Origin: Escherichia coli
GTDB taxonomy: Bacteria; Pseudomonadota; Gammaproteobacteria; Enterobacterales; Enterobacteriaceae
DNA: 64,000 nucleotides
NCBI RefSeq assembly: GCF_003018255.1
Contig: NZ_CP027440.1
Reading direction: 5' to 3' (one strand)
The position numbers were made by a program, and so were the translations under genes. Position 1 is the stretch's first letter; each line of letters begins with the position of its first letter. Positions 26,730-46,566 of this stretch are shown one piece after another. The notes below the pieces were generated by a model. The model saw only the letters and a list, made by a program, of their open reading frames with translations, was not told the origin of the DNA and searched no databases.

Positions 26730-27560
26730 ATGTTTGTTCCGTTTCTCATTATGTTGCGCGAAGGACTTGAAGCCGCGCTGATTGTCAGTTTGATTGCCAG
26801 CTATCTTAAGCGTACCCAGCGAGGCCGATGGATTGGTGTGATGTGGATTGGCGTGCTGTTTGCCGCTGCGTTGTGCCTGGGCTTGGGTATCTTCATTAAC
26901 GAAACCACCGGCGAATTTCCGCAAAAAGAACAGGAACTGTTTGAAGGTATCGTGGCGGTGATCGCCGTGGTGATCCTTACCTGGATGGTTTTCTGGATGC
27001 GCAAAGTGTCGCGCAACGTCAAAGTGCAACTGGAACAGGCAGTCGATAGCGCATTGCAGCGTGGAAATCATCATGGCTGGGCGCTGGTGATGATGGTCTT
27101 TTTTGCCGTTGCAAGGGAAGGGCTGGAGTCGGTCTTTTTCCTGCTGGCGGCGTTTCAACAAGATGTCGGGATCTGGCCGCCGCTGGGTGCAATGCTCGGT
27201 CTTGCTACAGCCGTGGTGCTCGGCTTCCTGCTCTACTGGGGCGGTATTCGCCTCAATCTTGGTGCATTTTTTAAATGGACCAGCCTGTTTATTCTCTTCG
27301 TCGCCGCAGGGCTGGCGGCTGGTGCCATTCGCGCATTTCATGAAGCCGGATTGTGGAACCACTTTCAGGAAATCGCCTTCGATATGAGTGCGGTGCTCTC
27401 AACTCACTCGCTGTTTGGCACGCTGATGGAAGGGGTTTTTGGCTATCAGGAAGCGCCGAGCGTCAGCGAAGTCGCCGTCTGGTTTATTTATCTCATCCCG
27501 GCGCTGGTGGCATTTGCTCTGCCACCACGCGCAGGGGCGACAGCGTCTCGCTCCGCGTAA
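26730..27560 (+). CDS. efeU: ferrous iron permease EfeU (276 aa, FTR1/OFeT family), apparently intact
   Basis: Continuous ORF (track 26721..27560, ATG at 26730 MFVPFLIMLREGLE) containing both REGLE motifs; no frameshift visible. Confidence 0.88.
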   Translation: MFVPFLIMLREGLEAALIVSLIASYLKRTQRGRWIGVMWIGVLFAAALCLGLGIFINETTGEFPQKEQELFEGIVAVIAVVILTWMVFWMRKVSRNVKVQLEQAVDSALQRGNHHGWALVMMVFFAVAREGLESVFFLLAAFQQDVGIWPPLGAMLGLATAVVLGFLLYWGGIRLNLGAFFKWTSLFILFVAAGLAAGAIRAFHEAGLWNHFQEIAFDMSAVLSTHSLFGTLMEGVFGYQEAPSVSEVAVWFIYLIPALVAFALPPRAGATASRSA

Positions 27561-30223: not shown

Positions 30224-30647
30224 CTTTCCAGTAGAAACTAATGTCACTGAAATGGTGTTTTATGGTTAAATATAAGTGAATATATTGTTGCAATGAATGC
30301 GAGATCTGGTGTAATTATTAAGTAGCAGCGGAAGTTCCCGGCAGTGATAGTCAGTCACTATGGAGATCGCGGATGGTAACGTCCTGTACTGGACAATGTT
30401 TTGTTAAGCAAGGCTCCACCACTCGCGGAGATTTCTCCTCCGGTAGCAACTTCGTCACTCTGTATTTTTCTCACTTCCTCTCTTTACTCGTGTTACCGAC
30501 GCCGCAAACGGTGTGCGTAGCCGTTTTTCGGCATTTTATCCAAAAGCAAACTATGGCTTACAAGGAAGCCAACCCTCTGATGTTCGTGCGCATAATCGCG
30601 CTGCCAACGGCGCGTGTGATGAATACAAACAACTCAAGGTGCTCTCC

Positions 30648-31436
30648 ATGGGAAGACAAAAAGCAGTGATCAAAGCTCGTCGCGAGGCAAAACGTGTGCT
30701 GAGACGGGATTCGCGCAGCCATAAGCAGCGTGAAGAAGAATCGGTCACCTCGCTTGTGCAAATGAGCGGCGTAGAAGCCATTGGTATGGCCCGCGATAGT
30801 CGCGATACCTCGCCCATCCTCGCGCGAAATGAAGCGCAATTGCACTATCTGAAGGCTATTGAGAGTAAGCAGCTGATATTCGCCACGGGCGAAGCCGGGT
30901 GCGGAAAAACCTGGATCAGCGCAGCAAAAGCGGCAGAGGCCCTGATACATAAGGATGTCGACAGGATTATCGTCACCCGTCCAGTTCTGCAAGCCGATGA
31001 AGATCTTGGCTTCTTACCTGGTGATATCGCAGAAAAGTTTGCTCCCTATTTTCGCCCGGTCTACGACGTGCTGGTTCGGCGCTTAGGGGCTTCCTTTATG
31101 CAGTACTGCCTGCGACCGGAAATAGGGAAGGTGGAAATTGCGCCGTTCGCCTATATGCGTGGACGTACCTTTGAAAATGCAGTCGTCATTCTTGACGAGG
31201 CGCAGAATGTGACTGCCGCGCAAATGAAAATGTTTTTAACCCGCCTCGGGGAGAACGTGACGGTTATCGTCAACGGTGATATCACGCAATGCGATTTGCC
31301 TCGCGGCGTGCGCTCCGGATTAAGTGACGCGCTGGAACGTTTCGAAGAAGATGAAATGGTCGGGATCGTCCGATTCGGTAAAGAGAATTGCGTACGTTCG
31401 GCACTTTGCCAACGTACGCTACATGCATACAGTTAA
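30648..31436 (+). CDS. phoH: phosphate-starvation-inducible ATPase PhoH (262-aa form)
   Basis: ATG at 30648 (MGRQKAVIKARREAKR); Walker A GEAGCGKT; the same frame is open upstream (track ORF from 30513), consistent with a longer isoform. Confidence 0.85.
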   Translation: MGRQKAVIKARREAKRVLRRDSRSHKQREEESVTSLVQMSGVEAIGMARDSRDTSPILARNEAQLHYLKAIESKQLIFATGEAGCGKTWISAAKAAEALIHKDVDRIIVTRPVLQADEDLGFLPGDIAEKFAPYFRPVYDVLVRRLGASFMQYCLRPEIGKVEIAPFAYMRGRTFENAVVILDEAQNVTAAQMKMFLTRLGENVTVIVNGDITQCDLPRGVRSGLSDALERFEEDEMVGIVRFGKENCVRSALCQRTLHAYS

Positions 31437-31453
31437 GTGTATTATCGGCGCAG

Positions 31454-31479
31454 AGCCCGGGCGAACCGGGCTTTGTTTT
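31454..31479 (+). terminator. rho-independent terminator after phoH
   Basis: agcccgg-gcgaa-ccgggct hairpin followed by ttgtttt. Confidence 0.7.
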
Positions 31480-31485
31480 GGGTGT

Positions 31486-31899
31486 TTATACCCGGACTAG
31501 CGTTTTTTCTGAAACCACCATTTTTATTTGTCCCTGACTGGTGAAGTGTACGCTCATCCTGTGGCTTTTTTGTAGTTGCTGATAAAGCTCATCAGGTATT
31601 GCTAAGCTCTCTGCATATTCTTGCGGCGTATATTGGTATGCTGCATGATGCTGCTGTTTTTTAAAACGCAGCTTATTGTACAATGCCCAGACGATTAACA
31701 CGACGGCATTCGCCACTGCCAGCAAAAAATAGAACTGAAGTCGGCTTCTGGCCTCGCTTTGCCAGTAATAACCCGTCAGCAGATCAATGGCGAATAAGAA
31801 TATGAACAAAGCAAATAATGTCCACAAGATGGTTGTGGCAACATAATCAACCAGTAAACGTACTGGCGATTGTCGGGTCGTAATAATTAGATTGTTCAT
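31486..31899 (-). CDS. pgaD: PNAG synthase accessory subunit PgaD (137 aa)
   Basis: 137-aa membrane [29 protein letters not shown]. Confidence 0.92.
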
Positions 31900-31900
31900 A

Positions 31901-33226
31901 TTAACCTCTCAGAATCCCACGATCGGGACTTACCCAACGAGCGCGTTGTTTTTTAGGCATCAACATGACTCGTGTAAATGATACCAATGTCGTTGCCAGG
32001 CTTAGCATCCAGAAAATAACCGGAAACCAAATAATCCAGAAAAGCGATGAAGCCAGATTGTGCTCATAGCGATTCTCAATTACCAGACTGACAATAAATT
32101 GCAGTAAACATAACGTGCACAATAATATTCCGGCAGTATGTGTCGCTGCGATATGTGTCAATTCAATATTTAACGGTACACCTGCAAGTTGGACTGCGTA
32201 AATAATGAAACCGACCAGGCAGGTAAAGGCCCATATTGTCGTCAGGCAGTATTCAAAAAACAGTGGCCACATTCGAAAGTTTTCTTTTCGCCACAACCTT
32301 GTCATATTTTTGAGGAATACTTCTGCACCGCCCTGAGCCCAGCGCAGGCGCTGTTTCCACAGCCCTTTTAACGTTTCAGGCATTAATATCCAGCACAGCG
32401 CCCGTGGCTCGTAAAAAATCGTCCACTGATTCAACTGCAGCTTCCAGCTAATATCAATATCTTCGGTGATCATATCGTCACTCCAGTAACCCACTTCTGC
32501 CAGGGCGCTGCGACGAAATGCGGCAATAACACCGGAAACGGTAAATACATTTCCATAGATACGCTGGGTCCGCTTGATCAAACCAATAATTGAGGAATAC
32601 TCGCCAACCTGAATTTTACCCACTAGGGTAGAACGTGTGCGAATACGAGGATTACCGGTTACGGCACCCACACGTGGGTTGTACAACATCGGTTCCACAA
32701 TATATGCCGCTGCATCGCGGTCTAATAACGCGTCGCCATCAATGCACACCAGATATTCACTTTTCGCCGCGGCAGCTCCGGTTTTAAGCGCAATGGCTTT
32801 CCCCTGGTTTTGCGCCAGATGAATGACCCGCAGACGGGGAATTTGTGCAGCCATGCGATCCAGGATGGCACGGGTTTTGTCTGTTGAACCATCATTTACG
32901 GCAATAACTTCAATGTTCTCATAACGCTGTGCTAAAGCGGCATGTATGGTTTCCTCAACGTTTTTCTCCTCATTAAAACAGGGAATGATAATGGAGATAG
33001 ATGGATTATCTTTCAACTGGGGGGCTGGTGCGTTTTCTCCCCACGGCCAGTGGCGTTCACGATAGACCCAGAAATAGACGCCGCCAATAATCCACATAAT
33101 GGACATAAAAAACGGCCAGAAGAAAACGAACCTCATCATCAGTTCACCAGAGTGAAAGTACGCTACGCATAGAGGTATGCATAACACCAGACATAATATA
33201 AAAAACGATACGATGCGATTAATCAT
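31901..33226 (-). CDS. pgaC: poly-beta-1,6-N-acetylglucosamine synthase PgaC (441 aa, GT2)
   Basis: 441-aa ORF with GT2 motifs ([18 protein letters not shown]); overlaps pgaB stop. Confidence 0.95.
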
Positions 33227-35237
33227 TTTTCGGATACCAGGCTGTTGAAAACTCAGGACGAATAACGTCTATTTCAGGTTGGTTATGCAGAAAATTGTCG
33301 GGATAATAACCATAATTTTTCACTCCATTCAGTTGTAATAGGCTCATCCAGTGAGCGAGTTGTTGTGAAGAAATAGCCTGATGCTGACCATTTTTCTGCC
33401 AGTTTTGTGCCTGTAATTCTAAAATTGATTTGTCTTTAGCCTGCGGGATGCTTTTCATCTGATTGGTCAATTGTGTTAACCATTGATCAGCCGATTTTTC
33501 TGTGACGCCTTCCATATAAGGCATAGCCATAATAGCGGTCCAGTCATAGCTTTTTAGGAAATCAGCATAATTCTGTGCAAACCAAGCTTCACTTTCAGGT
33601 TGTATTACCGGAAGTGCAAAAATATTTCGTGCAGTTTTAACATGTGGACCACGAATGGCTTTTACGCGCGCACTAAGTTCTAAAGTGAAGTCAGTTAACG
33701 CACGACTTTTAAAGCGGGTCCACTGTTTGAATTGCTCCGGGTTTTGTCGAATTTCGCTCAGACTCCCGCTAAAGCCAGCTTGCTGATAAGCCGCGATAGC
33801 CGCTGCACTGGCATCTTCATAATCTGAAAGCAAAGCATCATCGTGGAACAATATGCCATCAAAAGCAGCATGTCCGGCAAGATCATCATATAACATGCCA
33901 ACTTGTGCTCTGACCCTGTCATCGAAAGGGGAGAGACGGCGGTATTGTTCAGGATGAATTTGTGCTTTTTTCTCCCCAGTTGGTAAGTATTTTACTCGCG
34001 TTAATGTGGGATCTAAATCCCAGCTTAATACCGGCATCCACGCATAGATGTTTACACCTGAGCGGGTACGCAATTGCCAGGCAACCCGACTAAAAATATC
34101 TGCTTTCATTGGTAGCAAACGATTTGGAAACCAGACCTCTTTAACCAGCCCATCACCATCGGGATCAGCAAATGCTTGTAAATACACGGTAGATATTTGC
34201 ATATCTTTTACCCTCTGAATTAGCACATCAATATTGCGATCCATTTGCTGGCGGTTTTCGTCATAAATGTAATCAAGATCGATATGCATTACCCGTTGTA
34301 GTGGTTTTTCCTGTACGGTAATAATTTGCTGGGCAAACTCTTTTAATGAGGGATTATTGGCGATTAATACTCGCGGAATGGAATCTAATTGCGACGCATT
34401 TGCCAAACCTGATTCAAGGGTGAAGAACATGTCATAACCGAGTTTTTTTAATTCCGCGATTGCTATGCCATTCGCTTCGCCATAAGGCCAAACAAAAACG
34501 TGTGGATTTACCTCAGCCTTTGTACGCAGGTATTCCGTCATTTTTACAGCATCCAGACGAATTCTTTCCCGGTATTCTGCTGCGGTTTCATACCGTGCGT
34601 GGTCAGTAAAATATGCACGATTTACATATACAGGCAATAAGCTGCCGGTGGCATTAGCCTGAATACCGTAGTGAGAATTCCATGTATGAGAAGCGACCTC
34701 AACGAGCCGGGAACGCGCAACTTCTCGCACTTGTTGCCACGTGGCAAAATATTCTCGACTGACCATCTCATCGCCAAATTTTACTTGTTCATCCGCTGGC
34801 GTATCGACCCAACTGCCGACGGGGGCCCATACAGCAGGCCACTGGAAGGCCTGAAGAATTGGGAAGACGCGGGTATAAAAACTCTGGTAGCCGTCATCAA
34901 AAGTCAGCACTACTGCTTTTTCCGGTAGCGGTTTTCCTCCTCGATGTGCTTCACGAATTTGAGCAATACTGACCGGTTGATAACCGTTCTCGCGCAGCCA
35001 GGCAAATTGTTCACGCAGTGCTGATGTCCGCACTGACATAAAACGCTGGTCGGCAGCTTCGTCTTCAACGTTATGCCATGAAATCGCCACAAAACCATTA
35101 TGCGGCCACGGTTGCTCGGCGAGTAAAGATTCGCGATCCTGTGGCGGTATAAATGATGTTCTTGACTGGCTAATGCACGCAGTGAGCATAATTATACTCA
35201 CCAGCATCAGGATATATTTATTTCCATTACGTAACAT
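33219..35237 (-). CDS. pgaB: PNAG N-deacetylase lipoprotein PgaB (672 aa)
   Basis: 672-aa ORF with lipobox (LTACIS) and polysaccharide deacetylase domain. Confidence 0.95.
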
Positions 35238-35245
35238 ATTTATCC

Positions 35246-37669
35246 TTAAAATCTGAATGTCATATCGAATTCAACGTATAAGTTGTGTTCTCTGTCACCG
35301 TCATAAGGTCGTTTTTCCCAGCGTAGCGTTGCGCCAGCATCAATCACGTCATTCCAGCTAATACGTTGCCCGTAGCCGAGTTGGGTGACGACATCCGTGC
35401 CATAATGTTTTTGCCAGGAGGCACCAACACCTGCGCTGAAGATTTGCTCCCAGCTATTTTCATAGCTTCGCCATAACAAATGACTTGCCTCAAATGCCGG
35501 AACAATATCGAACGTTTTTATAGGGTTGTAGTATGGAGTGTCGTGTTCTGTATTTTGTTCGTAATACAGATTGGGTAGGAAATCGACAATCAAATATGGT
35601 GAAGACCAGATGCGTTCCTGACCCTCAAGTGAGACTTCCTGACGCTGGTTACTGTCGGAAAAATCAGTGAAAGCCCAGGAGACACCGTACTTACGCCGCT
35701 CATTTTGATACCAGCGAACATAAGCCTGAGCACTGTTGCCTGTAACACCATTTTTCATTGCCCGTAATGGAACGCGGTGAGAGAGGCGTTCCAGTTGCGA
35801 ACCAATACGCCAGTTATCATTAAAATCATACCAGCCAGACAGGCGCGCGCCGGGTTTATGCTCATGATTGAAAACGCGTTCAGCGTACTCCGCCTCGAGC
35901 CAGATATTACGTGACCGCCACTCAACACCCGCCAGCCAGTCGCGAACAATCCCTTTTCCTTCGCTAAATTGTCCATCGGCATAACCGAATCCAGCAAAAC
36001 CGCGCCAGTTATCCTTCAGCGGTGGTGAATAAACGATGGTGGTTAAGTCGACATCATGTTTACCACTATCCGGGCCTTCGGCATCAATTCCTGTTGAACC
36101 AGCTATACGAAGCTCTGCAAGATTATGTACATCAACCGCACGTTTTAAACGTACAACGCCGGGATCTTGCGGTTCACGTTCGACAACATCGTGCGTTAAG
36201 ACAGCTGCCTGCTGCCATTCTTGTAACGTTAATGCTGTCCATGCTTGTTCAACCTCCAGATTAATATTACGTGGCTCGATCACTTCTGCTTTTTTTAATT
36301 CATTTTCTGCTGCACGAGGCCAACCGCGGGCTTGTAACACACTCGCGTAATCAATGCGCAGTCCCTGATTTCCTGGTGCGTTATAAGCAAGCTCTCTGGC
36401 TATCATTTCAGCCTGAGGAAGATCATTACTATATTTTGCTACGGTTGAGAGAAACGAATGCCCCTGTAACCAGGTATCATTCGGGATGCTCGTAGGCGTG
36501 CCCATTAACCGAAGGAAAGGCGGCGAAGTATTAATGGTATGTTGGGTGACAGTTAGCGCGCCGGGATAATTTTCACTCTCCAGGTGGCTGTAAAAGAGAT
36601 CCGCAAGTTCTTCATCGGATAAATCCGGGGCAATGGTCTCCTTGTGATAAAAGAGCTCTGTCATTATTGACTGTGCTTTTTTTGGCTGCTGTTCTTTGAG
36701 ATAAGCCGACGCAACCCAATATTGCGCCCAGGGCGGAATAATTTGCCTCGTATTTTTTAAACGCTGATAGTGAGAAATAACGTCTTTATAACGATCGCGA
36801 GTTAATAACGCGCCAAGATGATCAACCTGAATACGCTGGTACTGGGCAGTGCGGTCTGAGTTATCGTGCCACAGAATTTCTAATGCAGCGTATTGGGCGA
36901 GGGCGCGATCGGCAATGGCATAACGTTCACTTTCACTGCGCGTAGGCATAAACGACAGTCTGATCAGTTCGGCATGAATATCAGCGCGAATATCTGGCGT
37001 TAAATTGGCATCGTCAATCGCGGCAGCTAGTTGATTATTACGTAATGCCTGCACGTATTCTGTGGGATATTGTTGCTTAGATGCATTTTCAGGTAATGAC
37101 TCTGTCATCGCCCGTAATTCATCCTGATGACGCCCCGTCAGTTTATAGATATAGGCTTCTGCGAGTAAATTGGCTTTGTCCGGCGCTCCAGATTTAAGCT
37201 GCTTAAGTTTAACCAGCGCAGTATCATAGTGACCCGCATCTGCCAGGGTTAAAATTTGTCCCCGTTGATAATCCTTATTTTGCGGCTCCAGAGAGAGCGC
37301 CTTTTGCCACAGTGTAAGCGAGTTTTGCCATTGTTGCAGGTTACGATAAGCGACGGCGACAGCTGCATAACCACGCGCTGGTAATTGCTGATGACGGTAG
37401 CGGCTGTAAACGGTAATGACCTGTTTATCTTGCCCGGCCCATAAGGCAATTTGTAACCAGTCAGCAATTTGGTTATTACTGAGTGTTGATTTTTGTGCAA
37501 ACCATGACAAAGCTGGCTGAGTATTTCCTTTGCGAGCTTCAATAATCAATGCATCATAGGCGTTATTAACAGCACTCTTCGCCGCGGGACTCGCTGCTAA
37601 AAATGCGGCAGTAAGAAGTTTCAAAGCCCATTTGGTTTTCGGGCACCTTTTTCTGCTACTTGAATACAT
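35246..37669 (-). CDS. pgaA: PNAG outer-membrane export porin PgaA (807 aa, TPR + beta-barrel)
   Basis: 807-aa ORF MYSSSRKRCPKTKWALKLLTAAFLAASPAAKSA. Confidence 0.95.
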   Translation of the reverse strand: MYSSSRKRCPKTKWALKLLTAAFLAASPAAKSAVNNAYDALIIEARKGNTQPALSWFAQKSTLSNNQIADWLQIALWAGQDKQVITVYSRYRHQQLPARGYAAVAVAYRNLQQWQNSLTLWQKALSLEPQNKDYQRGQILTLADAGHYDTALVKLKQLKSGAPDKANLLAEAYIYKLTGRHQDELRAMTESLPENASKQQYPTEYVQALRNNQLAAAIDDANLTPDIRADIHAELIRLSFMPTRSESERYAIADRALAQYAALEILWHDNSDRTAQYQRIQVDHLGALLTRDRYKDVISHYQRLKNTRQIIPPWAQYWVASAYLKEQQPKKAQSIMTELFYHKETIAPDLSDEELADLFYSHLESENYPGALTVTQHTINTSPPFLRLMGTPTSIPNDTWLQGHSFLSTVAKYSNDLPQAEMIARELAYNAPGNQGLRIDYASVLQARGWPRAAENELKKAEVIEPRNINLEVEQAWTALTLQEWQQAAVLTHDVVEREPQDPGVVRLKRAVDVHNLAELRIAGSTGIDAEGPDSGKHDVDLTTIVYSPPLKDNWRGFAGFGYADGQFSEGKGIVRDWLAGVEWRSRNIWLEAEYAERVFNHEHKPGARLSGWYDFNDNWRIGSQLERLSHRVPLRAMKNGVTGNSAQAYVRWYQNERRKYGVSWAFTDFSDSNQRQEVSLEGQERIWSSPYLIVDFLPNLYYEQNTEHDTPYYNPIKTFDIVPAFEASHLLWRSYENSWEQIFSAGVGASWQKHYGTDVVTQLGYGQRISWNDVIDAGATLRWEKRPYDGDREHNLYVEFDMTFRF

Positions 37670-37905
37670 CCTGTATTACTCCATGTATTGCCAAAATCTC
37701 TCTCTATATCTAATTACAGGTAACTGAAAAGAAAGATATTTTTGCATCTCATAATCCGTTATTAAACGCGGAAGAGACACGTGAATTGTTGATGATGAGA
37801 AGAAGAAATGATGAGCAGATTGTCCATATAAAATCCTTTTCTCGCCCGAAAATCCATTCCAATGATGAGGATCTTCAGGAATACGGCATAAATCCCAATG
37901 CCTTT
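37670..37905 (-). promoter_or_regulatory. long pgaA 5' leader carrying multiple GGA motifs (CsrA-binding type)
   Basis: Six or more GGA triplets on the transcribed strand, including one over the SD (AGGAUG at the start codon). Confidence 0.6.
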
Positions 37906-38256
37906 TTCAAAATAAATTAGGATTAAAATAATTAAATCAGTAAATTCCGATGCATAATTTCGGATTTTTCGAAAGTCCTGATGAAAGGCAGCGCTACTGC
38001 ACTCACGAATTTAATTGTTATTCCTAATGTATCTATTAATTAATGCTTTATAAGGATTTTATTATAATCCTTTATAAGTATTTGCAAGCCTGCCTTGCAG
38101 CAAAAAATGTATAAAGCATTAAAGTGATAATAATTACATTCTGCAACTATCATCATCGGTATTGTTTGTGGGTGGATTTTCATATTGACAACAGTACAGT
38201 TCTTATATCTATTAATAATAAAAAGGGATCTACAACCTACAGGTTGGTGTAGCTTT

Positions 38257-39624
38257 ATGGAAAAAGACTATTTGGGAATTAGTAGTACTGTATTAGTGAG
38301 CTTATTGTTTGGGCTTGCATTGGTTTTGGTTAATAGTTGGTTCAATCAGCCAACCGTTGAGGAAGTTGTTCCACGATCAACCTATCTGATGGTTATGATT
38401 GCTTTATTTTTTATCGATACTGTTGCATTTATTTTTATGCAGTTGTATTTCATTTATGACCGTAGGCAATTTTCAAACTGTATACTTAGTTTGGCTTTTC
38501 TAAGTTGTTTGATTTACTTTATTAAAACCGTCATTATCATTCAGCAAATTATTGAGGGGCGTTTGACAAGCAGTGTTGTTCAAAATGACATTGCAATTTA
38601 TTATTTGTTTCGTCAGATGAGTTTGTGCGTATTAATATTTCTGGCATTGGTAAATAAAGTTAGTGAAAACACAAAACAGCGCAATTTGTTTTCCAAAAAA
38701 GTGACTTTGTGCATAACTTTGTTTTTTGTTCTTGGGGGGCCGATAGTTGCTCACATATTTTCTAGCCATTATGAGAGCTACGATTTACACATTGCCGAGT
38801 TAACCAATAAAAATGGTCAGGTGGTTTGGAAAGCCTCATATGTTACCATAATGATTTTCATGTGGTTAACCTTGCTTTCGGTTAATCTATACTTTAATGG
38901 TTTACGCTGTGATATCTGGAACGGGGTGTCGGTGATTGCTTTTTGTGCCGTGCTGTACAATATCTCTCTGTTATTTATGAGCAGGTATAGCGTGTCCATT
39001 TGGTATATTAGTCGCACTATTGAAGTAGTCAGTAAGTTAACCGTTTTGGTAATTTTTATGTGCCATATATTCAGTGCGCTACGAGTAACAAAGGACATTG
39101 CACATCGCGATCCCTTAACCAATATATTTAACAGAAATTATTTTTTTAATGAACTGACGGTTCAATCAGCATCGGCCAAAAAAAAACCTTATTGCGTCAT
39201 GATTATGGATATTGACCACTTCAAAAAAGTCAACGACACCTGGGGACATCCGGTTGGCGATCAAGTGATAAAGACAGTGGTGAATATCATTGGGAAAAGC
39301 ATACGACCAGATGACCTTTTAGCGCGCGTTGGCGGCGAAGAGTTTGGCGTCTTGCTGACGGAGATCGATACTGAATGTGCGAAAGCTTTAGCGGAAAGGA
39401 TTCGGGAAAATGTTGAACGTTTAACTGGCGATAATCCTGAATACGCCATACCACAAAAAGTGACAATTAGTATTGGCGCTGTTGTAACGCAGAAAAATGA
39501 GTTAAACCCTAAGGAGATCTATCAACTGGCTGATAACGCACTTTACGAGGCGAAAGAGACCGGGCGTAATAAGGTGGTAGTAAAAGAGGCAGAAATTCTT
39601 ATCAACCGCAAGGATGATGAATGA
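38257..39624 (+). CDS. dgcT: membrane-anchored diguanylate cyclase DgcT/YcdT (GGDEF domain)
   Basis: Track ORF trimmed to ATG at 38257 (MEKDYLGISSTVLVSLLFGLALVLV); multiple TM helices then GGDEF domain (RVGGEEFGVLL). Confidence 0.88.
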   Translation: MEKDYLGISSTVLVSLLFGLALVLVNSWFNQPTVEEVVPRSTYLMVMIALFFIDTVAFIFMQLYFIYDRRQFSNCILSLAFLSCLIYFIKTVIIIQQIIEGRLTSSVVQNDIAIYYLFRQMSLCVLIFLALVNKVSENTKQRNLFSKKVTLCITLFFVLGGPIVAHIFSSHYESYDLHIAELTNKNGQVVWKASYVTIMIFMWLTLLSVNLYFNGLRCDIWNGVSVIAFCAVLYNISLLFMSRYSVSIWYISRTIEVVSKLTVLVIFMCHIFSALRVTKDIAHRDPLTNIFNRNYFFNELTVQSASAKKKPYCVMIMDIDHFKKVNDTWGHPVGDQVIKTVVNIIGKSIRPDDLLARVGGEEFGVLLTEIDTECAKALAERIRENVERLTGDNPEYAIPQKVTISIGAVVTQKNELNPKEIYQLADNALYEAKETGRNKVVVKEAEILINRKDDE

Positions 39625-39685
39625 GTCTGTCGCTAGTTGTCGACCTCCGCCTGGGGCTTCTCATCCCCCAGTGTGTGAAATATAC

Positions 39686-39716
39686 GAAAAAAAGCTCGCA
39701 CTTTCGTACGAGCTCT
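39686..39716 (-). terminator. terminator downstream of serX (bidirectional hairpin shared with the dgcT 3' end)
   Basis: agctcg-cactttcgta-cgagct hairpin flanked by A7 on plus (T7 on minus). Confidence 0.7.
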
Positions 39717-39726
39717 TCTTTAAATA

Positions 39727-39814
39727 TGGCGGTGAGGGGGGGATTCGAACCCCCGATACGTTGCCGTATACACACTTTCCAGGCGTGCTCCTTCAGCCAC
39801 TCGGACACCTCACC
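39727..39814 (-). tRNA. serX: tRNA-Ser (anticodon GGA), 88 nt with long variable arm
   Basis: Minus strand reads GGTGAGGTGTCCGAGTGGCTGAAGGAGCACGCCTGGAAAGTGTGTATACGGCAACGTATCGGGGGTTCGAATCCCCCCCTCACCGCCA; 7-bp acceptor stem, GGA anticodon, CCA end. Confidence 0.93.
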
Positions 39815-39995
39815 AAATTGTCGTTCCTGTCTTGCTGGAACGGGCGCTAATTTAGGGAAATCATGACCTGAGGTCAACAAACTTTTTTAAAAAATCGCTC
39901 GATTATTCAAACTTCAATCAATATGCAGTTTTAATAAGCGAAATTTGCTTTTTTTGCCACCGACCACGGATTTGTTATGCTGCTGGTCTTTGTAG

Positions 39996-40985
<990 letters not shown>

Positions 40986-41039
40986 TAAAGCATCAGGTTT
41001 CCTGCTATCCTTGGCGGGAATTGAATACAGGAGAGAGTT

Positions 41040-41777
41040 ATGTATCCCGTCGACCTTCATATGCATACCGTTGCCAGCACGCATGCATATAGCACATTGA
41101 GTGATTACATTGCCCAGGCCAAACAAAAGGGCATTAAACTTTTTGCGATCACCGATCATGGCCCGGATATGGAAGATGCGCCGCATCACTGGCACTTCAT
41201 TAACATGCGTATCTGGCCGCGAGTGGTTGATGGGGTTGGGATCCTGCGCGGCATCGAAGCTAACATTAAAAATGTTGACGGTGAAATTGACTGCAGTGGC
41301 AAAATGTTTGATTCGCTGGATCTGATTATTGCCGGTTTTCATGAGCCGGTGTTTGCGCCGCATGACAAAGCGACCAATACGCAAGCGATGATCGCCACTA
41401 TCGCCAGCGGCAATGTGCATATAATAAGCCATCCCGGAAATCCGAAATATGAAATAGATGTTAAAGCCGTTGCTGAAGCAGCCGCGAAACATCAGGTGGC
41501 GCTGGAAATCAATAATTCCTCATTTTTACACTCACGTAAGGGCAGTGAAGACAACTGTCGGGCGGTAGCCGCAGCGGTACGTGACGCTGGAGGTTGGGTG
41601 GCATTAGGCTCGGATTCTCACACTGCGTTTACCATGGGGGAATTTGAAGAGTGTCTTAAAATCCTCGACGCGGTAGATTTTCCGCCAGAGCGCATTTTGA
41701 ATGTTTCTCCGCGCCGCTTACTTAACTTCCTTGAATCTCGCGGTATGGCACCGATTGCGGAATTTGCAGACCTTTAA
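41040..41777 (+). CDS. ycdX: PHP-family zinc phosphatase YcdX (245 aa)
   Basis: 245-aa [23 protein letters not shown] (PHP HxH motif). Confidence 0.92.
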
Positions 41778-41800
41778 TTACTAGTAATGGAAATATATTA

Positions 41801-42355
41801 ATGAATGAGTTTTCTATCCTCTGTCGTGTGCTGGGTTCGCTCTATTACCGCCAACCGCAAGATCCTTTACTGGTGCCGTTGTTTACCCTGATTCGTGAGG
41901 GGAAACTGGCTGCGAACTGGCCACTGGAGCAGGATGAGTTACTGACGCGTTTACAGAAAAGCTGTGATATGACGCAAGTCTCTGCCGATTACAATGCGTT
42001 GTTTATCGGCGATGAATGTGCTGTGCCGCCATATCGTAGCGCATGGGTTGAGGGCGCAACGGAAGCGGAAGTGCGCGCTTTTCTTTCCGAACGAGGGATG
42101 CCACTAGCGGATACGCCAGCCGATCACATCGGCACATTGCTGCTTGCGGCTTCCTGGCTGGAAGATCAGTCAACGGAAGATGAGAGCGAAGCACTGGAAA
42201 CACTGTTCAGTGAGTATCTGTTACCCTGGTGTGGTGCGTTCCTTGGCAAAGTGGAGGCCCATGCAACTACGCCTTTCTGGCGCACCATGGCACCGCTAAC
42301 CCGCGATGCTATTAATGCAATGTGGGACGAGCTGGAAGAAGATTCTGAAGAGTAA
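41801..42355 (+). CDS. ycdY: TorD/DmsD-family chaperone YcdY (184 aa)
   Basis: 184-aa ORF MNEFSILCRVLGSLYYRQPQDPLLVPLF. Confidence 0.9.
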   Translation: MNEFSILCRVLGSLYYRQPQDPLLVPLFTLIREGKLAANWPLEQDELLTRLQKSCDMTQVSADYNALFIGDECAVPPYRSAWVEGATEAEVRAFLSERGMPLADTPADHIGTLLLAASWLEDQSTEDESEALETLFSEYLLPWCGAFLGKVEAHATTPFWRTMAPLTRDAINAMWDELEEDSEE

Positions 42356-42456
42356 ATGTGATCTGCATCACTCATAACTGCAACGGGTAATTTGTTGTTG
42401 CATAAAATGTGTGCTCGATCTCATTCATGGCCGCGTTTTCTGCTATCATGCGCGGC

Positions 42457-42948
42457 ATGAACATACTTCTCTCTATTGCAATCACAACAGGCATTCTCTC
42501 CGGTATCTGGGGATGGGTGGCTGTTTCCCTGGGCTTACTAAGCTGGGCGGGCTTCCTGGGCTGTACGGCCTACTTTGCCTGCCCACAAGGTGGGCTGAAA
42601 GGGCTGGCGATCTCCGCTGCAACCCTGCTTAGTGGCGTGGTGTGGGCGATGGTCATTATTTACGGTAGTGCACTGGCACCACATCTGGAAATACTCGGTT
42701 ATGCCATAACCGGTATTGTCGCGTTTCTGATGTGTATCCAGGCCAAACAGCTGCTGCTTTCATTTGTTCCGGGGACGTTTATAGGCGCATGCGCGACGTT
42801 TGCCGGGCAGGGTGACTGGAAACTGGTGTTACCTTCGCTGGCGCTTGGACTGGTATTTGGTTACGCAATGAAAAACAGCGGCCTGTGGTTGGCGGCGCGT
42901 AGTGCAAAGACGGCTCACCGTGAGCAGCAAATCAAAAATAAAGCGTGA
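42457..42948 (+). CDS. ycdZ: inner membrane protein YcdZ (163 aa, DUF1097)
   Basis: Track ORF trimmed to ATG at 42457 (MNILLSIAITTGILSGIWGW); four predicted TM helices. Confidence 0.85.
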   Translation: MNILLSIAITTGILSGIWGWVAVSLGLLSWAGFLGCTAYFACPQGGLKGLAISAATLLSGVVWAMVIIYGSALAPHLEILGYAITGIVAFLMCIQAKQLLLSFVPGTFIGACATFAGQGDWKLVLPSLALGLVFGYAMKNSGLWLAARSAKTAHREQQIKNKA

Positions 42949-43011
42949 GGGGCACTCACGCTTTCGCTTAAACCGTAAAATGTCGGATGATAATTCCGGC
43001 ATTTTTATCTA

Positions 43012-43845
43012 TCAGGATTCCGGTGGAACCGACATATGGCGGTATTTCACTAGAATGTCATTCTGCCGTTCTGCTTTATTTTGCAAATCCCAAAGACCGC
43101 GGTCGATACCATCATTAATCAGGAAAATGACGCCTGTTTCGATAGCCGACATCAGGCACAGCATAACGGGTTCGTTCGAGGTGTAACCTACTTCCCCTTC
43201 CAGCAAGCGCTGGTAGTCAATAAAGCGGAAGACCCCCGCCTGAACTTCATAGGAAAGTATCGTCTTACTGGTGTTCACCGAGGAGAGGATCTCGCCGGTA
43301 CTCACATTGACGACGCGCAGGTTCACGGCAATCTGATCAAGCTGGTATTGCGTGTCTGCACCGATCCCAAAATATCTTGCCCCAACCCCGCCCGATTTAA
43401 CGTTGCTTTCATAACCGATAATTGAACCTTCAACCATGATATTTGCCGCCGTTAAAGATTGCAGCGGGATTCGGTTATTAATGGCAACCGTGCCGTTTTC
43501 TTGTGCCGCACGAATAATCTTGCGCTCGTTAAGCAGGTTTTGTAAGCCTTGGCGCTCCAGCGGTATAAACCAGCGAGAATCTTTCAATGCCGTGACCAGC
43601 ATTGCCGTGGCGCTTTGCGGAACAGCAGTGGAGAAGTTACTTGCCGGGTAGGGTTTAAATTGCCCGGTTTCGTCCTGAATGTTGTATACCGAAACAAAGA
43701 TCTTACCCGTCGGCGCTGGCAGATGGGTCAAATCTTTGTAGCTCTGAGCACGAGGCATTAATGTCGGTCTGGCGGCTTCTTTAGGCGGGGCGGTTAAGCA
43801 TCCGCTCAGTAACATGACGGCAACCAAAAGAAATAAGCGCTGCAT
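43012..43845 (-). CDS. csgG: curli secretion channel lipoprotein CsgG (277 aa)
   Basis: 277-aa ORF MQRLFLLVAVMLLSGCLTAPP (lipobox). Confidence 0.95.
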   Translation of the reverse strand: MQRLFLLVAVMLLSGCLTAPPKEAARPTLMPRAQSYKDLTHLPAPTGKIFVSVYNIQDETGQFKPYPASNFSTAVPQSATAMLVTALKDSRWFIPLERQGLQNLLNERKIIRAAQENGTVAINNRIPLQSLTAANIMVEGSIIGYESNVKSGGVGARYFGIGADTQYQLDQIAVNLRVVNVSTGEILSSVNTSKTILSYEVQAGVFRFIDYQRLLEGEVGYTSNEPVMLCLMSAIETGVIFLINDGIDRGLWDLQNKAERQNDILVKYRHMSVPPES

Positions 43846-43871
43846 GATTATTTTCCTTATGAAGCTGGGGC

Positions 43872-44288
43872 TTAAAAATCGGTTGAGTTATTTTGTAAAC
43901 CCGAAACCTGGATGGTCGAGGTTTGTCCGGTTTTACGATCTGTCACGTTCAACTGCAATTGACCATCGCGGTTAGCAATATCAACAATATAATCGTTGGT
44001 CACCATGCGGCCCGGTTTACCGGTATTAATATTCGACAGTAGCCCACCCAAAATTTGTGACTGGATGGCCTGAGTAAAGTTATCTAACGCCGAGGGCGTT
44101 TCAATACCAAAGTCATCGTTATAGCTCGGATCTTTATAAGAGTTTTGGGCCTGAGCGCTATTTAACAAAAAAGCGCCATTATTTGGGTTACCACCAAAGT
44201 TTGGATTACGGAACTGGAAAGTCATGGTTCCAGCCCAACTTAATGGCGAAATAAGCATGAGTAGAACTACTGCATGTTTGACACGCAT
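43872..44288 (-). CDS. csgF: curli assembly component CsgF (138 aa)
   Basis: 138-aa [36 protein letters not shown]. Confidence 0.95.
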
Positions 44289-44312
44289 TGCAGCCTCCGA
44301 ACAATTTATTAT

Positions 44313-44702
44313 TTAAAATTCATCATGCGCCAAATCGCCCGTACTTAATAACGCTTGGTTTATCTGGCGACGATTTAGTGCTTCTTCAGTTTGAATCAGT
44401 GCAAAGACGACAGTTTTCTCGAAGTCTCTTTTCAACGGAAATAAAAAAGTCTGGAAAATAACGTCCTGATTCACCGTTATTGTGATCCAGCTTCCCCATC
44501 GTGCACTGGGCCTTTCATTAATCGTTAAGTTACCCGTATAGTCACTTTCCCATTTATCACTAAAGGCTCGGTAAAAATCATGGCCAATAGATGAAACAGT
44601 ATGGTCAGTTAACAATCCCGGGACTTCTACCTCAACGGCGTGAAGATTCCCTGCGGCGAACAGAAATTCTGCCGCCACAATCCAGCGTAAATAACGTTTC
44701 AT
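44313..44702 (-). CDS. csgE: curli secretion specificity factor CsgE (129 aa)
   Basis: 129-aa [36 protein letters not shown]. Confidence 0.95.
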
Positions 44703-44706
44703 GGCT

Positions 44707-45357
<651 letters not shown>

Positions 45358-46110
45358 GATGAAACCCCGCTTTTTTTATTGATCGCACACCTGACAGCTG
45401 CCTCTAAAATAGAAGCACCAGAAGTACTGACAGATGTTGCACTGCTGTGTGTAGTAATAAATCAGCCCTAAATGGGTAAAATATAAAACTAATGGATTAC
45501 ATCTGATTTCAATCTAGCCATTACAAATCTTAAATCAAGTGTTAAACATGTAACTAAATGTAACTCGTTATATTAAAATGTTAATCTTAAGGTTTTATTA
45601 AGTTTAGAAATGATAGAAAAGTTGTACATTTGGTTTTTATTGCACAATTTTAAAAAATCATACAAATGGTGCTAACTTACTAATAATGCATATAAAAAAT
45701 ATTTCGGTGTAGTCCTTTCGTCATGTAAAACGTTCTTGTTTTTTCTCCACACCTCCGTGGACAATTTTTTACTGCAAAAAGACGAGGTTTGTCACGGCTT
45801 GTGCGCAAGACATATCGCAGCAATCAGCGACGGGCAAGAAGAATGATTGTCTGGTGATTTTTGATAGCGGAAAACGGAGATTTAAAAGAAAACAAAATAT
45901 TTTTTGCGTAGATAACAGCGTATTTACGTGAGTTTTAATACTTTGGTATGAACAAAAAAAGAAAAATACAACGCGCGGGTGAGTTATTAAAAATATTTCC
46001 GCAGACATACTTTCCATCGTAACGCAGCGTTAACAAAATACAGGTTGCGTTAACAACCAAGTTGAAATGATTTAATTTCTTAAATGTACGACCAGGTCCA
46101 GGGTGACAAC
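45358..46110. promoter_or_regulatory. 753-bp divergent csgD / csgBAC regulatory region
   Basis: Long AT-rich ORF-free intergenic region between divergently oriented csgD and csgB. Confidence 0.85.
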
Positions 46111-46566
46111 ATGAAAAACAAATTGTTATTTATGATGTTAACAATACTGGGTGCGCCTGGGATTGCAGCCGCAGCAGGTTATGATTTAGCTAATTCAGAA
46201 TATAACTTCGCGGTAAATGAATTGAGTAAGTCTTCATTTAATCAGGCAGCCATAATTGGTCAAGCTGGGACTAATAATAGTGCTCAGTTACGGCAGGGAG
46301 GCTCAAAACTTTTGGCGGTTGTTGCGCAAGAAGGTAGTAGCAACCGGGCAAAGATTGACCAGACAGGAGATTATAACCTTGCATATATTGATCAGGCGGG
46401 CAGTGCCAACGATGCCAGTATTTCGCAAGGTGCTTATGGTAATACTGCGATGATTATCCAGAAAGGTTCTGGTAATAAAGCAAATATTACACAGTATGGT
46501 ACTCAAAAAACGGCAATTGTAGTGCAGAGACAGTCGCAAATGGCTATTCGCGTGACACAACGTTAA
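46111..46566 (+). CDS. csgB: curli nucleator minor subunit CsgB (151 aa)
   Basis: Track ORF trimmed to ATG at 46111 (MKNKLLFMMLTILGAPGIAAAAGYDLANSEYNFAV). Confidence 0.93.
   Translation: MKNKLLFMMLTILGAPGIAAAAGYDLANSEYNFAVNELSKSSFNQAAIIGQAGTNNSAQLRQGGSKLLAVVAQEGSSNRAKIDQTGDYNLAYIDQAGSANDASISQGAYGNTAMIIQKGSGNKANITQYGTQKTAIVVQRQSQMAIRVTQR

Follow-up and report, generated by a model that had tools for sequence, protein, structure and literature searches.

The 3’ ends of the tRNA-Ser genes serW and serX serve as the integration site of a well-described family of islands. OI-43/48 of Escherichia coli O157:H7 are flanked by perfect 14-bp direct repeats, TGGCGGTGAGGGGG, that correspond to the last 14 bp of serW/serX and are identical to the repeats of SRL-PAI (PMC3064760). 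Both islands encode a P4-family integrase and their precise excision restores an intact serX, as described for OI-48 in O157:H7; large deletions around OI-48 and ycdU were reported as well (PMC3064760). The DNA next to serX has also been described as a pgaD-ycdU ‘genome island’ flanked by efeB/phoH and ghrA/ycdXYZ (PMC4951805, Fig. 5), and pga/ycdT is subject to presence-absence variation, with some strains lacking pga/ycdT (PMC5635171).

We analyzed a 64,000-nt stretch of E. coli DNA (the window), in which dgcT is followed directly by serX; we refer to this arrangement as the compact junction. The variable region, the compact state and the attB core are all known already. We propose that at positions 39625-39830 the serX end of the phoH-serX hotspot for accessory genes is very probably empty, and we add small refinements to the published accounts: a spacer made of a terminator and a truncated RtT-like unit, the asymmetry of that terminator, base-pair boundaries of the pga-dgcT module, and a K-12 state that is probably derived.

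The dgcT-serX junction and its spacer

The features of the junction are as follows.

38257-39624, plus strand: dgcT (ycdT), a GGDEF diguanylate cyclase of 455 aa, with its TGA at 39622-39624
39579-39624, plus strand: window-type 3’ tail of dgcT, ending in VVVKEAEILINRKDDE and the stop; K-12 and O157-type homology is gone from here
39625-39686, minus strand: truncated single RtT-like 181-bp unit, roughly the initial 60 nt as read on the serX strand, from alignments to K-12, Escherichia and Citrobacter amalonaticus
39651-39671: small hairpin, CTGGGG/CCCCAG, within the RtT-like unit
39687-39720, minus strand: serX intrinsic (Rho-independent) terminator, with an 8-bp stem (GCTCGTAC/GTGCGAGC), a GAAA loop and a U7 tract
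39727-39814, minus strand: serX, intact tRNA-Ser with anticodon GGA (ARAGORN; Rfam tRNA match, 53.8 bits)
39727-39740, minus strand: 14-bp attB core TGGCGGTGAGGGGG, the serX 3’ end, single copy in the window and unoccupied
39849-39877, minus strand: promoter-like site upstream of serX (TTGACC, 17-nt spacer, TAAATT), from a consensus scan only

The order is dgcT, spacer, serX and ghrA, the last beginning at 40047. DgcT is identical to its K-12 counterpart at 417 of 455 residues. The initial annotation estimated that about 100 bp separate dgcT from serX, and the gap measures 102 bp (39625-39726). One minus-strand open reading frame (39602-39880) and two plus-strand ones (39614-39850 and 39621-39866) that overlap the spacer and serX were set aside: they cross the tRNA gene, and the annotation of E. 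coli JNE23-011 has no CDS there. This complete chromosome is collinear with the window from torS to pyrC, with 156 differences over 64,000 positions, and between torS and pyrC its annotation contains no integrase and no transposase.

The initial annotation also stated that K-12 has IS3, ymdE and ycdU between dgcT and serX, which the MG1655 annotation confirms, and that this segment is missing here. Blastn and tblastn searches of the 64-kb window gave no match to K-12 IS3, ymdE or ycdU anywhere. The integrase region of the serX island of strain MS20658 (the first 9 kb of the island), the O157:H7 cluster upstream of ycdU and the DUF2726 gene likewise gave no match in the window; the only blast matches of these foreign-segment queries fell in the spacer and in a 42-bp part of the phoH terminator.

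The spacer had been read as a single bidirectional terminator. A hairpin is indeed present on the plus strand at 39687-39720, but it occupies only 34 of the 102 bp, the other 62 bp being the truncated RtT-like unit, and its plus-strand folding is weak (z -2.0). On the serX strand the terminator folds at -20.9 kcal/mol (z -5.8) with one G.U pair in the 8-bp stem; on the dgcT strand the hairpin folds at -9.4 kcal/mol, with a C.A mismatch in the stem and the tail UCUUCUUU. A terminator scan called 39687-39720 on the minus strand only. The hairpin is thus predicted to be a strong terminator for serX and a weak one for dgcT. Bidirectional use is plausible but weak, because of the C.A mismatch, the -9.4 kcal/mol folding and the minus-only scan call. 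Transcripts of dgcT may end at 39687-39720 in the weaker orientation; they would probably either stop at this hairpin or read through it. The hairpin is kept across Escherichia and Citrobacter, with stem variants.

The spacer is 88-90% identical to each K-12 RtT-like unit over 102-121 nt. In K-12, 4.4 tandem copies of a 181-bp unit lie downstream of serX, and each unit takes in the terminator together with the 3’-terminal 19 nt of the tRNA. This 19-mer is present five times in K-12, at a 181-bp spacing, and K-12 therefore has five tandem 14-bp att cores, because every full unit carries the core. Copy number differs among strains that are otherwise K-12-like: MG1655 has 4.4 units (locus L001, 5318-6121) and B2C has only a 60-nt fragment (locus L007, 9000-9062). 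The unit is old and also lies 3’ of serX in Citrobacter amalonaticus and in a range of Escherichia, E. albertii and E. whittamii among them. The window spacer neither forms a tandem array nor contains a further tRNA 3’ end; the single 19-mer is serX itself. We take the RtT repeats to be Rfam RF00391. The Rfam RtT covariance model gave no match at E<=1 over 37500-41000, nor at E<=10 over 39560-39830, and the spacer is for that reason not classed as an RtT gene. Sub-threshold Rfam scores for this spacer and for the E. coli E69 spacer (sX4, Thr/Leu leaders, MicC) were rejected, as they reflect the tRNA and the terminator hairpin.

The serX 3’ end as an integration site

By its sequence, 39727-39740 is the single empty copy of the characterised attB core. 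The 3’ 19-mer of serX occurs once in the 64-kb window with up to 3 mismatches allowed, so the search for a second serX 3’ end returned none, and no att scar was found; together with the JNE23-011 annotation, this agrees with the initial annotation, which saw no integrase and no direct repeat.

Occupied relatives bear out the proposal that serX is an unoccupied integration site. The left flank of the MS20658 island matches the window at 99.4% identity across 9.8 kb and carries a window-type dgcT tail; the order there is dgcT tail, spacer, the 14-mer TGGCGGTGAGGGGG and island DNA, with a tyrosine integrase gene 277 bp past the dgcT stop. In O157:H7 (Z1812), the 14-mer and an island end identical in sequence to that of MS20658 lie after ycdU, and the two integrases, both P4-type tyrosine integrases, are identical at 396 of 400 aa. 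At the far end of the O157:H7 island, island genes adjoin an intact serX. Nissle 1917 has the dgcT-side pattern of MS20658. The islands of MS20658 and O157:H7 thus lie at the last 14 bp of serX, the repeat described in PMC3064760.

The absence of an integrase island from the window would mean either that none ever integrated or that one was excised precisely. The two histories look alike in sequence because precise excision leaves no scar. A recent island of the SpLE1/OI-48/SRL-PAI type, lost between its 14-bp direct repeats so that the compact junction was restored, would follow the precedent of OI-48 in O157:H7 (PMC3064760); MS20658, with its closely similar flank and identical type of dgcT tail, has an island of this kind at this very core, and Nissle 1917 has the dgcT-side pattern too. 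Nothing in the window sequence speaks for such an event: the core is single, the 64 kb contain no remnant of an island, and the compact junction is widespread across the 95-100% identity classes, which long-term vacancy explains equally well. We consider recent precise excision unlikely.

With a 275-bp query made up of the dgcT tail, the spacer and serX, an uninterrupted compact junction was recovered from 1120 of 5426 complete E. coli genomes (20.6%); all 13 sampled rows of this search, APEC O1 included, span 275-277 bp. A 1.6-kb query recovered 1161 genomes. The comparison with K-12 and other E. coli thus places the window with these genomes and apart from K-12, whose junction is not compact; ymdE/ycdU are present in 2601 complete E. 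coli genomes (48%). The compact junction is ordinary, a common and previously described allelic state of a known hotspot, and with 1120 of 5426 genomes having it, it is less notable than was first suggested.

The phoH-serX hotspot and the age of the compact junction

Two further features delimit the variable interval to the left of serX.

31455-31479, plus strand: phoH intrinsic terminator, hairpin GCCCGGGCGAACCGGGC + TTTGTTTT, the left edge of the variable phoH-serX interval
31480-39624, no single strand: pgaDCBA-dgcT module, accessory low-GC cargo, from the annotation of a near-identical genome and from GC content

Homology to pga-less E. coli (CUPS04, L005) stops at 31479, and the same hairpin follows phoH in two Citrobacter loci (L034, L038). 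The boundaries of the variable interval are 31479/31480 on the left and 39624/39625, the dgcT stop, on the right. The module fills it closely: 6-7 nt separate the end of the phoH terminator from the pgaD stop codon (31486-31488), and 0 nt separate the dgcT stop from the serX spacer. GC content is 43.4% in the module, 38.1% in dgcT and 32.4% in the pgaA-dgcT intergenic region, compared to 53.3% in the left flank. No pga-dgcT is present in CUPS04, KTa005 or E. albertii, which are arranged phoH-DUF2726-serX instead. In a GhrA scan with one genome per species, phoH...serX-ghrA synteny extended across Enterobacteriaceae, with phoH-serX distances from 192 bp to >8 kb; E. coli E69 and several Citrobacter loci are at the short end, with 192-238 bp. 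We rejected E69 (L015) as a clean ‘window minus module’ state, since its phoH terminator region differs, and its phoH-serX spacer may be a deletion product. Because the phoH-proximal spacer of E69 differs, polarity is taken from the Citrobacter loci and general synteny only.

The pgaABCD-dgcT module would then be horizontally acquired cargo between phoH and serX. The term ‘unoccupied’ covers the integrase-island layer of the locus; the neighboring pga-dgcT genes belong to the cargo of this hotspot too, a point made before in PMC4951805 (Fig. 5 legend).

Some side observations concern the same interval. In the GhrA scan, 16 of 80 loci stop within ~700 bp upstream of ghrA (L010, L021, L023-L025, L035, L044, L050, L052, L054, L057, L058, L075, L079, L081 and L088); draft assemblies that break at serX fit the presence of repeats or islands there across Enterobacteriaceae. 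Between phoH and ghrA, many Enterobacter, Lelliottia, Leclercia, Klebsiella and Pseudocitrobacter loci have a complete tRNA-Ser gene in duplicate, at a distance of 2-3.5 kb (L039-L047, L053, L055, L059, L060, L064-L069 and others), which suggests that a small insert lies between the two copies. To the right of dgcT, over 39627-46499, identity to K-12 is 95.9% in serX-ghrA, 96.8-97.8% in ycdX-csgG and 99.4% in csgD, ~5-6 kb off. A divergence gradient of this kind is typical beside a recombination or integration hotspot.

In K-12 MG1655, dgcT is followed by IS3, ymdE (a pseudogene truncated at its N terminus), ycdU, four units annotated ‘RtT sRNA’, serX and ghrA. In O157:H7, full-length ymdE and ycdU end a cluster of >20 kb with fimbrial, FHA-like, fatty-acid/polyketide-type and ABC-transporter genes. 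We take this cluster to be O-island 47 (OI-47). From these arrangements, the K-12 ymdE’-ycdU segment looks like an IS3-truncated remnant of the cluster that is intact in O157:H7; the truncation of K-12 ymdE by IS3 has been described (PMC4951805). The K-12 segment does not represent an element once integrated at the tRNA and then excised in the window lineage. The window lineage would rather never have received the large cluster of which K-12 keeps a remnant.

The last codons of dgcT bear on which state is older. The K-12 blastn alignment stops at window position 39578, inside dgcT and 46 bp before its stop, and the K-12 protein ends in VVVRDVVNFCESP. A second pga-dgcT allele, L011 (NZ_JAATUR010000045.1, 1-9700; window 30329-39745), is 83% identical in DNA over 9.4 kb, with 80% aa identity in PgaA and 78% in DgcT between near-identical flanks (PhoH 99%, GhrA 95%); this allele type is present in 57 of 5426 complete E. 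coli genomes. When L011 was the query, its match to K-12 and O157-type genomes ended at the equivalent point (query 653). The divergent allele nevertheless has a homologous window-type tail, ending in VVMTEAENLMNWKDDD, and shares with the window the junction of the stop with TCTGTCGCCAGTTGTCG of the RtT-like unit; it has 2-3 RtT-like units between dgcT and serX. This exact fusion of dgcT stop and RtT-like unit has thus been kept between two pga-dgcT alleles 17% divergent in DNA.

The compact junction is probably the older state and the K-12 state derived, on the basis of this one divergent allele and the logic of the junction. It would be the older right-hand boundary of the pgaABCD-dgcT module, and it is the simplest original right end, since no deletion starting from the K-12 type can regenerate the window-type tail. 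The ymdE-ycdU-type segment would have arrived later, as a replacement or an insertion, and have overwritten the final ~15 codons of dgcT. A more far-reaching proposal is that the fusion is the original capture junction of pgaABCD-dgcT, that an integrase-less island entered via serX-derived repeats, and that the RtT-like arrays, with a 14-bp core per unit, act as pseudo-attB sites or recombination substrates that drive turnover of the hotspot; we regard this proposal as improbable.

Alternatively, IS3 activity or recombination among RtT-like units could have deleted a segment like that of K-12 (IS3/ymdE/ycdU/RtT array) and so produced the compact junction. Such arrays do collapse, as in B2C, which has the K-12 arrangement without a full unit; IS3 has truncated ymdE in K-12, and large deletions have been reported around OI-48 and ycdU (PMC3064760). 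This origin is very improbable, however: the two types of dgcT part ways over the final 46 bp, so that a K-12-type start could not recreate the window tail, the tail and junction are common to an allele 17% divergent in DNA, and the window has no trace of IS3 or ycdU. An assembly artefact, in which an RtT array was collapsed or an island missed, deserves hardly any weight even though draft assemblies often break at serX (the 16 of 80 GhrA-scan loci), as the same 275-277 bp junction is found in 1120 complete genomes, including the near-identical JNE23-011 chromosome.

Significance and comparison with described systems

Under the favored reading of an empty serX end, the strain is without the serX-borne islands that in EHEC bring tellurite resistance, urease and Iha, and also without the cluster that ends in ymdE-ycdU. 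In ST73 strains, serX-borne islands, likewise absent here, carry microcin, F1C and salmochelin genes. The result is of use for typing, for the choice of a clean attB background and for correct annotation, and of little beyond. Elsewhere in the window, cbpA and agp are only ~530 bp apart (10476-11009), with one small annotated gene fragment in the gap, where K-12 presumably has yccE, apparently absent here; efeU is annotated as an intact gene of 831 bp (26730-27560), and its K-12 counterpart is, we assume, a frameshifted pseudogene.

Compared with K-12, the window shares the flanks of the ycdT(dgcT)-IS3D-ymdE’-ycdU-serX region, namely pgaABCD, dgcT, serX, ghrA, ycdXYZ and csg, as well as the serX-proximal 100-bp spacer at ~88-90% identity. 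The K-12 region is 3.4 kb longer, with IS3, the truncated ymdE, ycdU and 4.4 RtT-like units that each carry the 19-nt tRNA 3’ end, and its dgcT has a different C-terminal tail. With respect to the RtT repeats, which are of tyrT type, tandem and include a tRNA 3’ end, the spacer is homologous to the K-12 units that PGAP labels ‘RtT sRNA’; the window differs in having one truncated unit, no array, no inner tRNA end and no covariance-model score.

The interval is the same as that of the island described in PMC4951805 and PMC5635171, and pga-dgcT and what follows it have the same accessory and variable character; relative to the published pgaD-ycdU island, the window is the variant in which pga-dgcT is present and everything distal is absent. 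The serX end itself is like the empty attB of the serW/serX island family (OI-43/OI-48, that is TAI/SpLE1, of O157:H7, and SRL-PAI of Shigella flexneri). The sorbitol-fermenting O157:NM strain 493/89, with an intact serX, likewise has tRNA-Ser(GGA) and the core TGGCGGTGAGGGGG, with no second repeat and no integrase. The distal neighbor of serX is dgcT in the window and ycdU in O157:H7, and nothing else of substance distinguishes the locus from the empty attB sites of this family.
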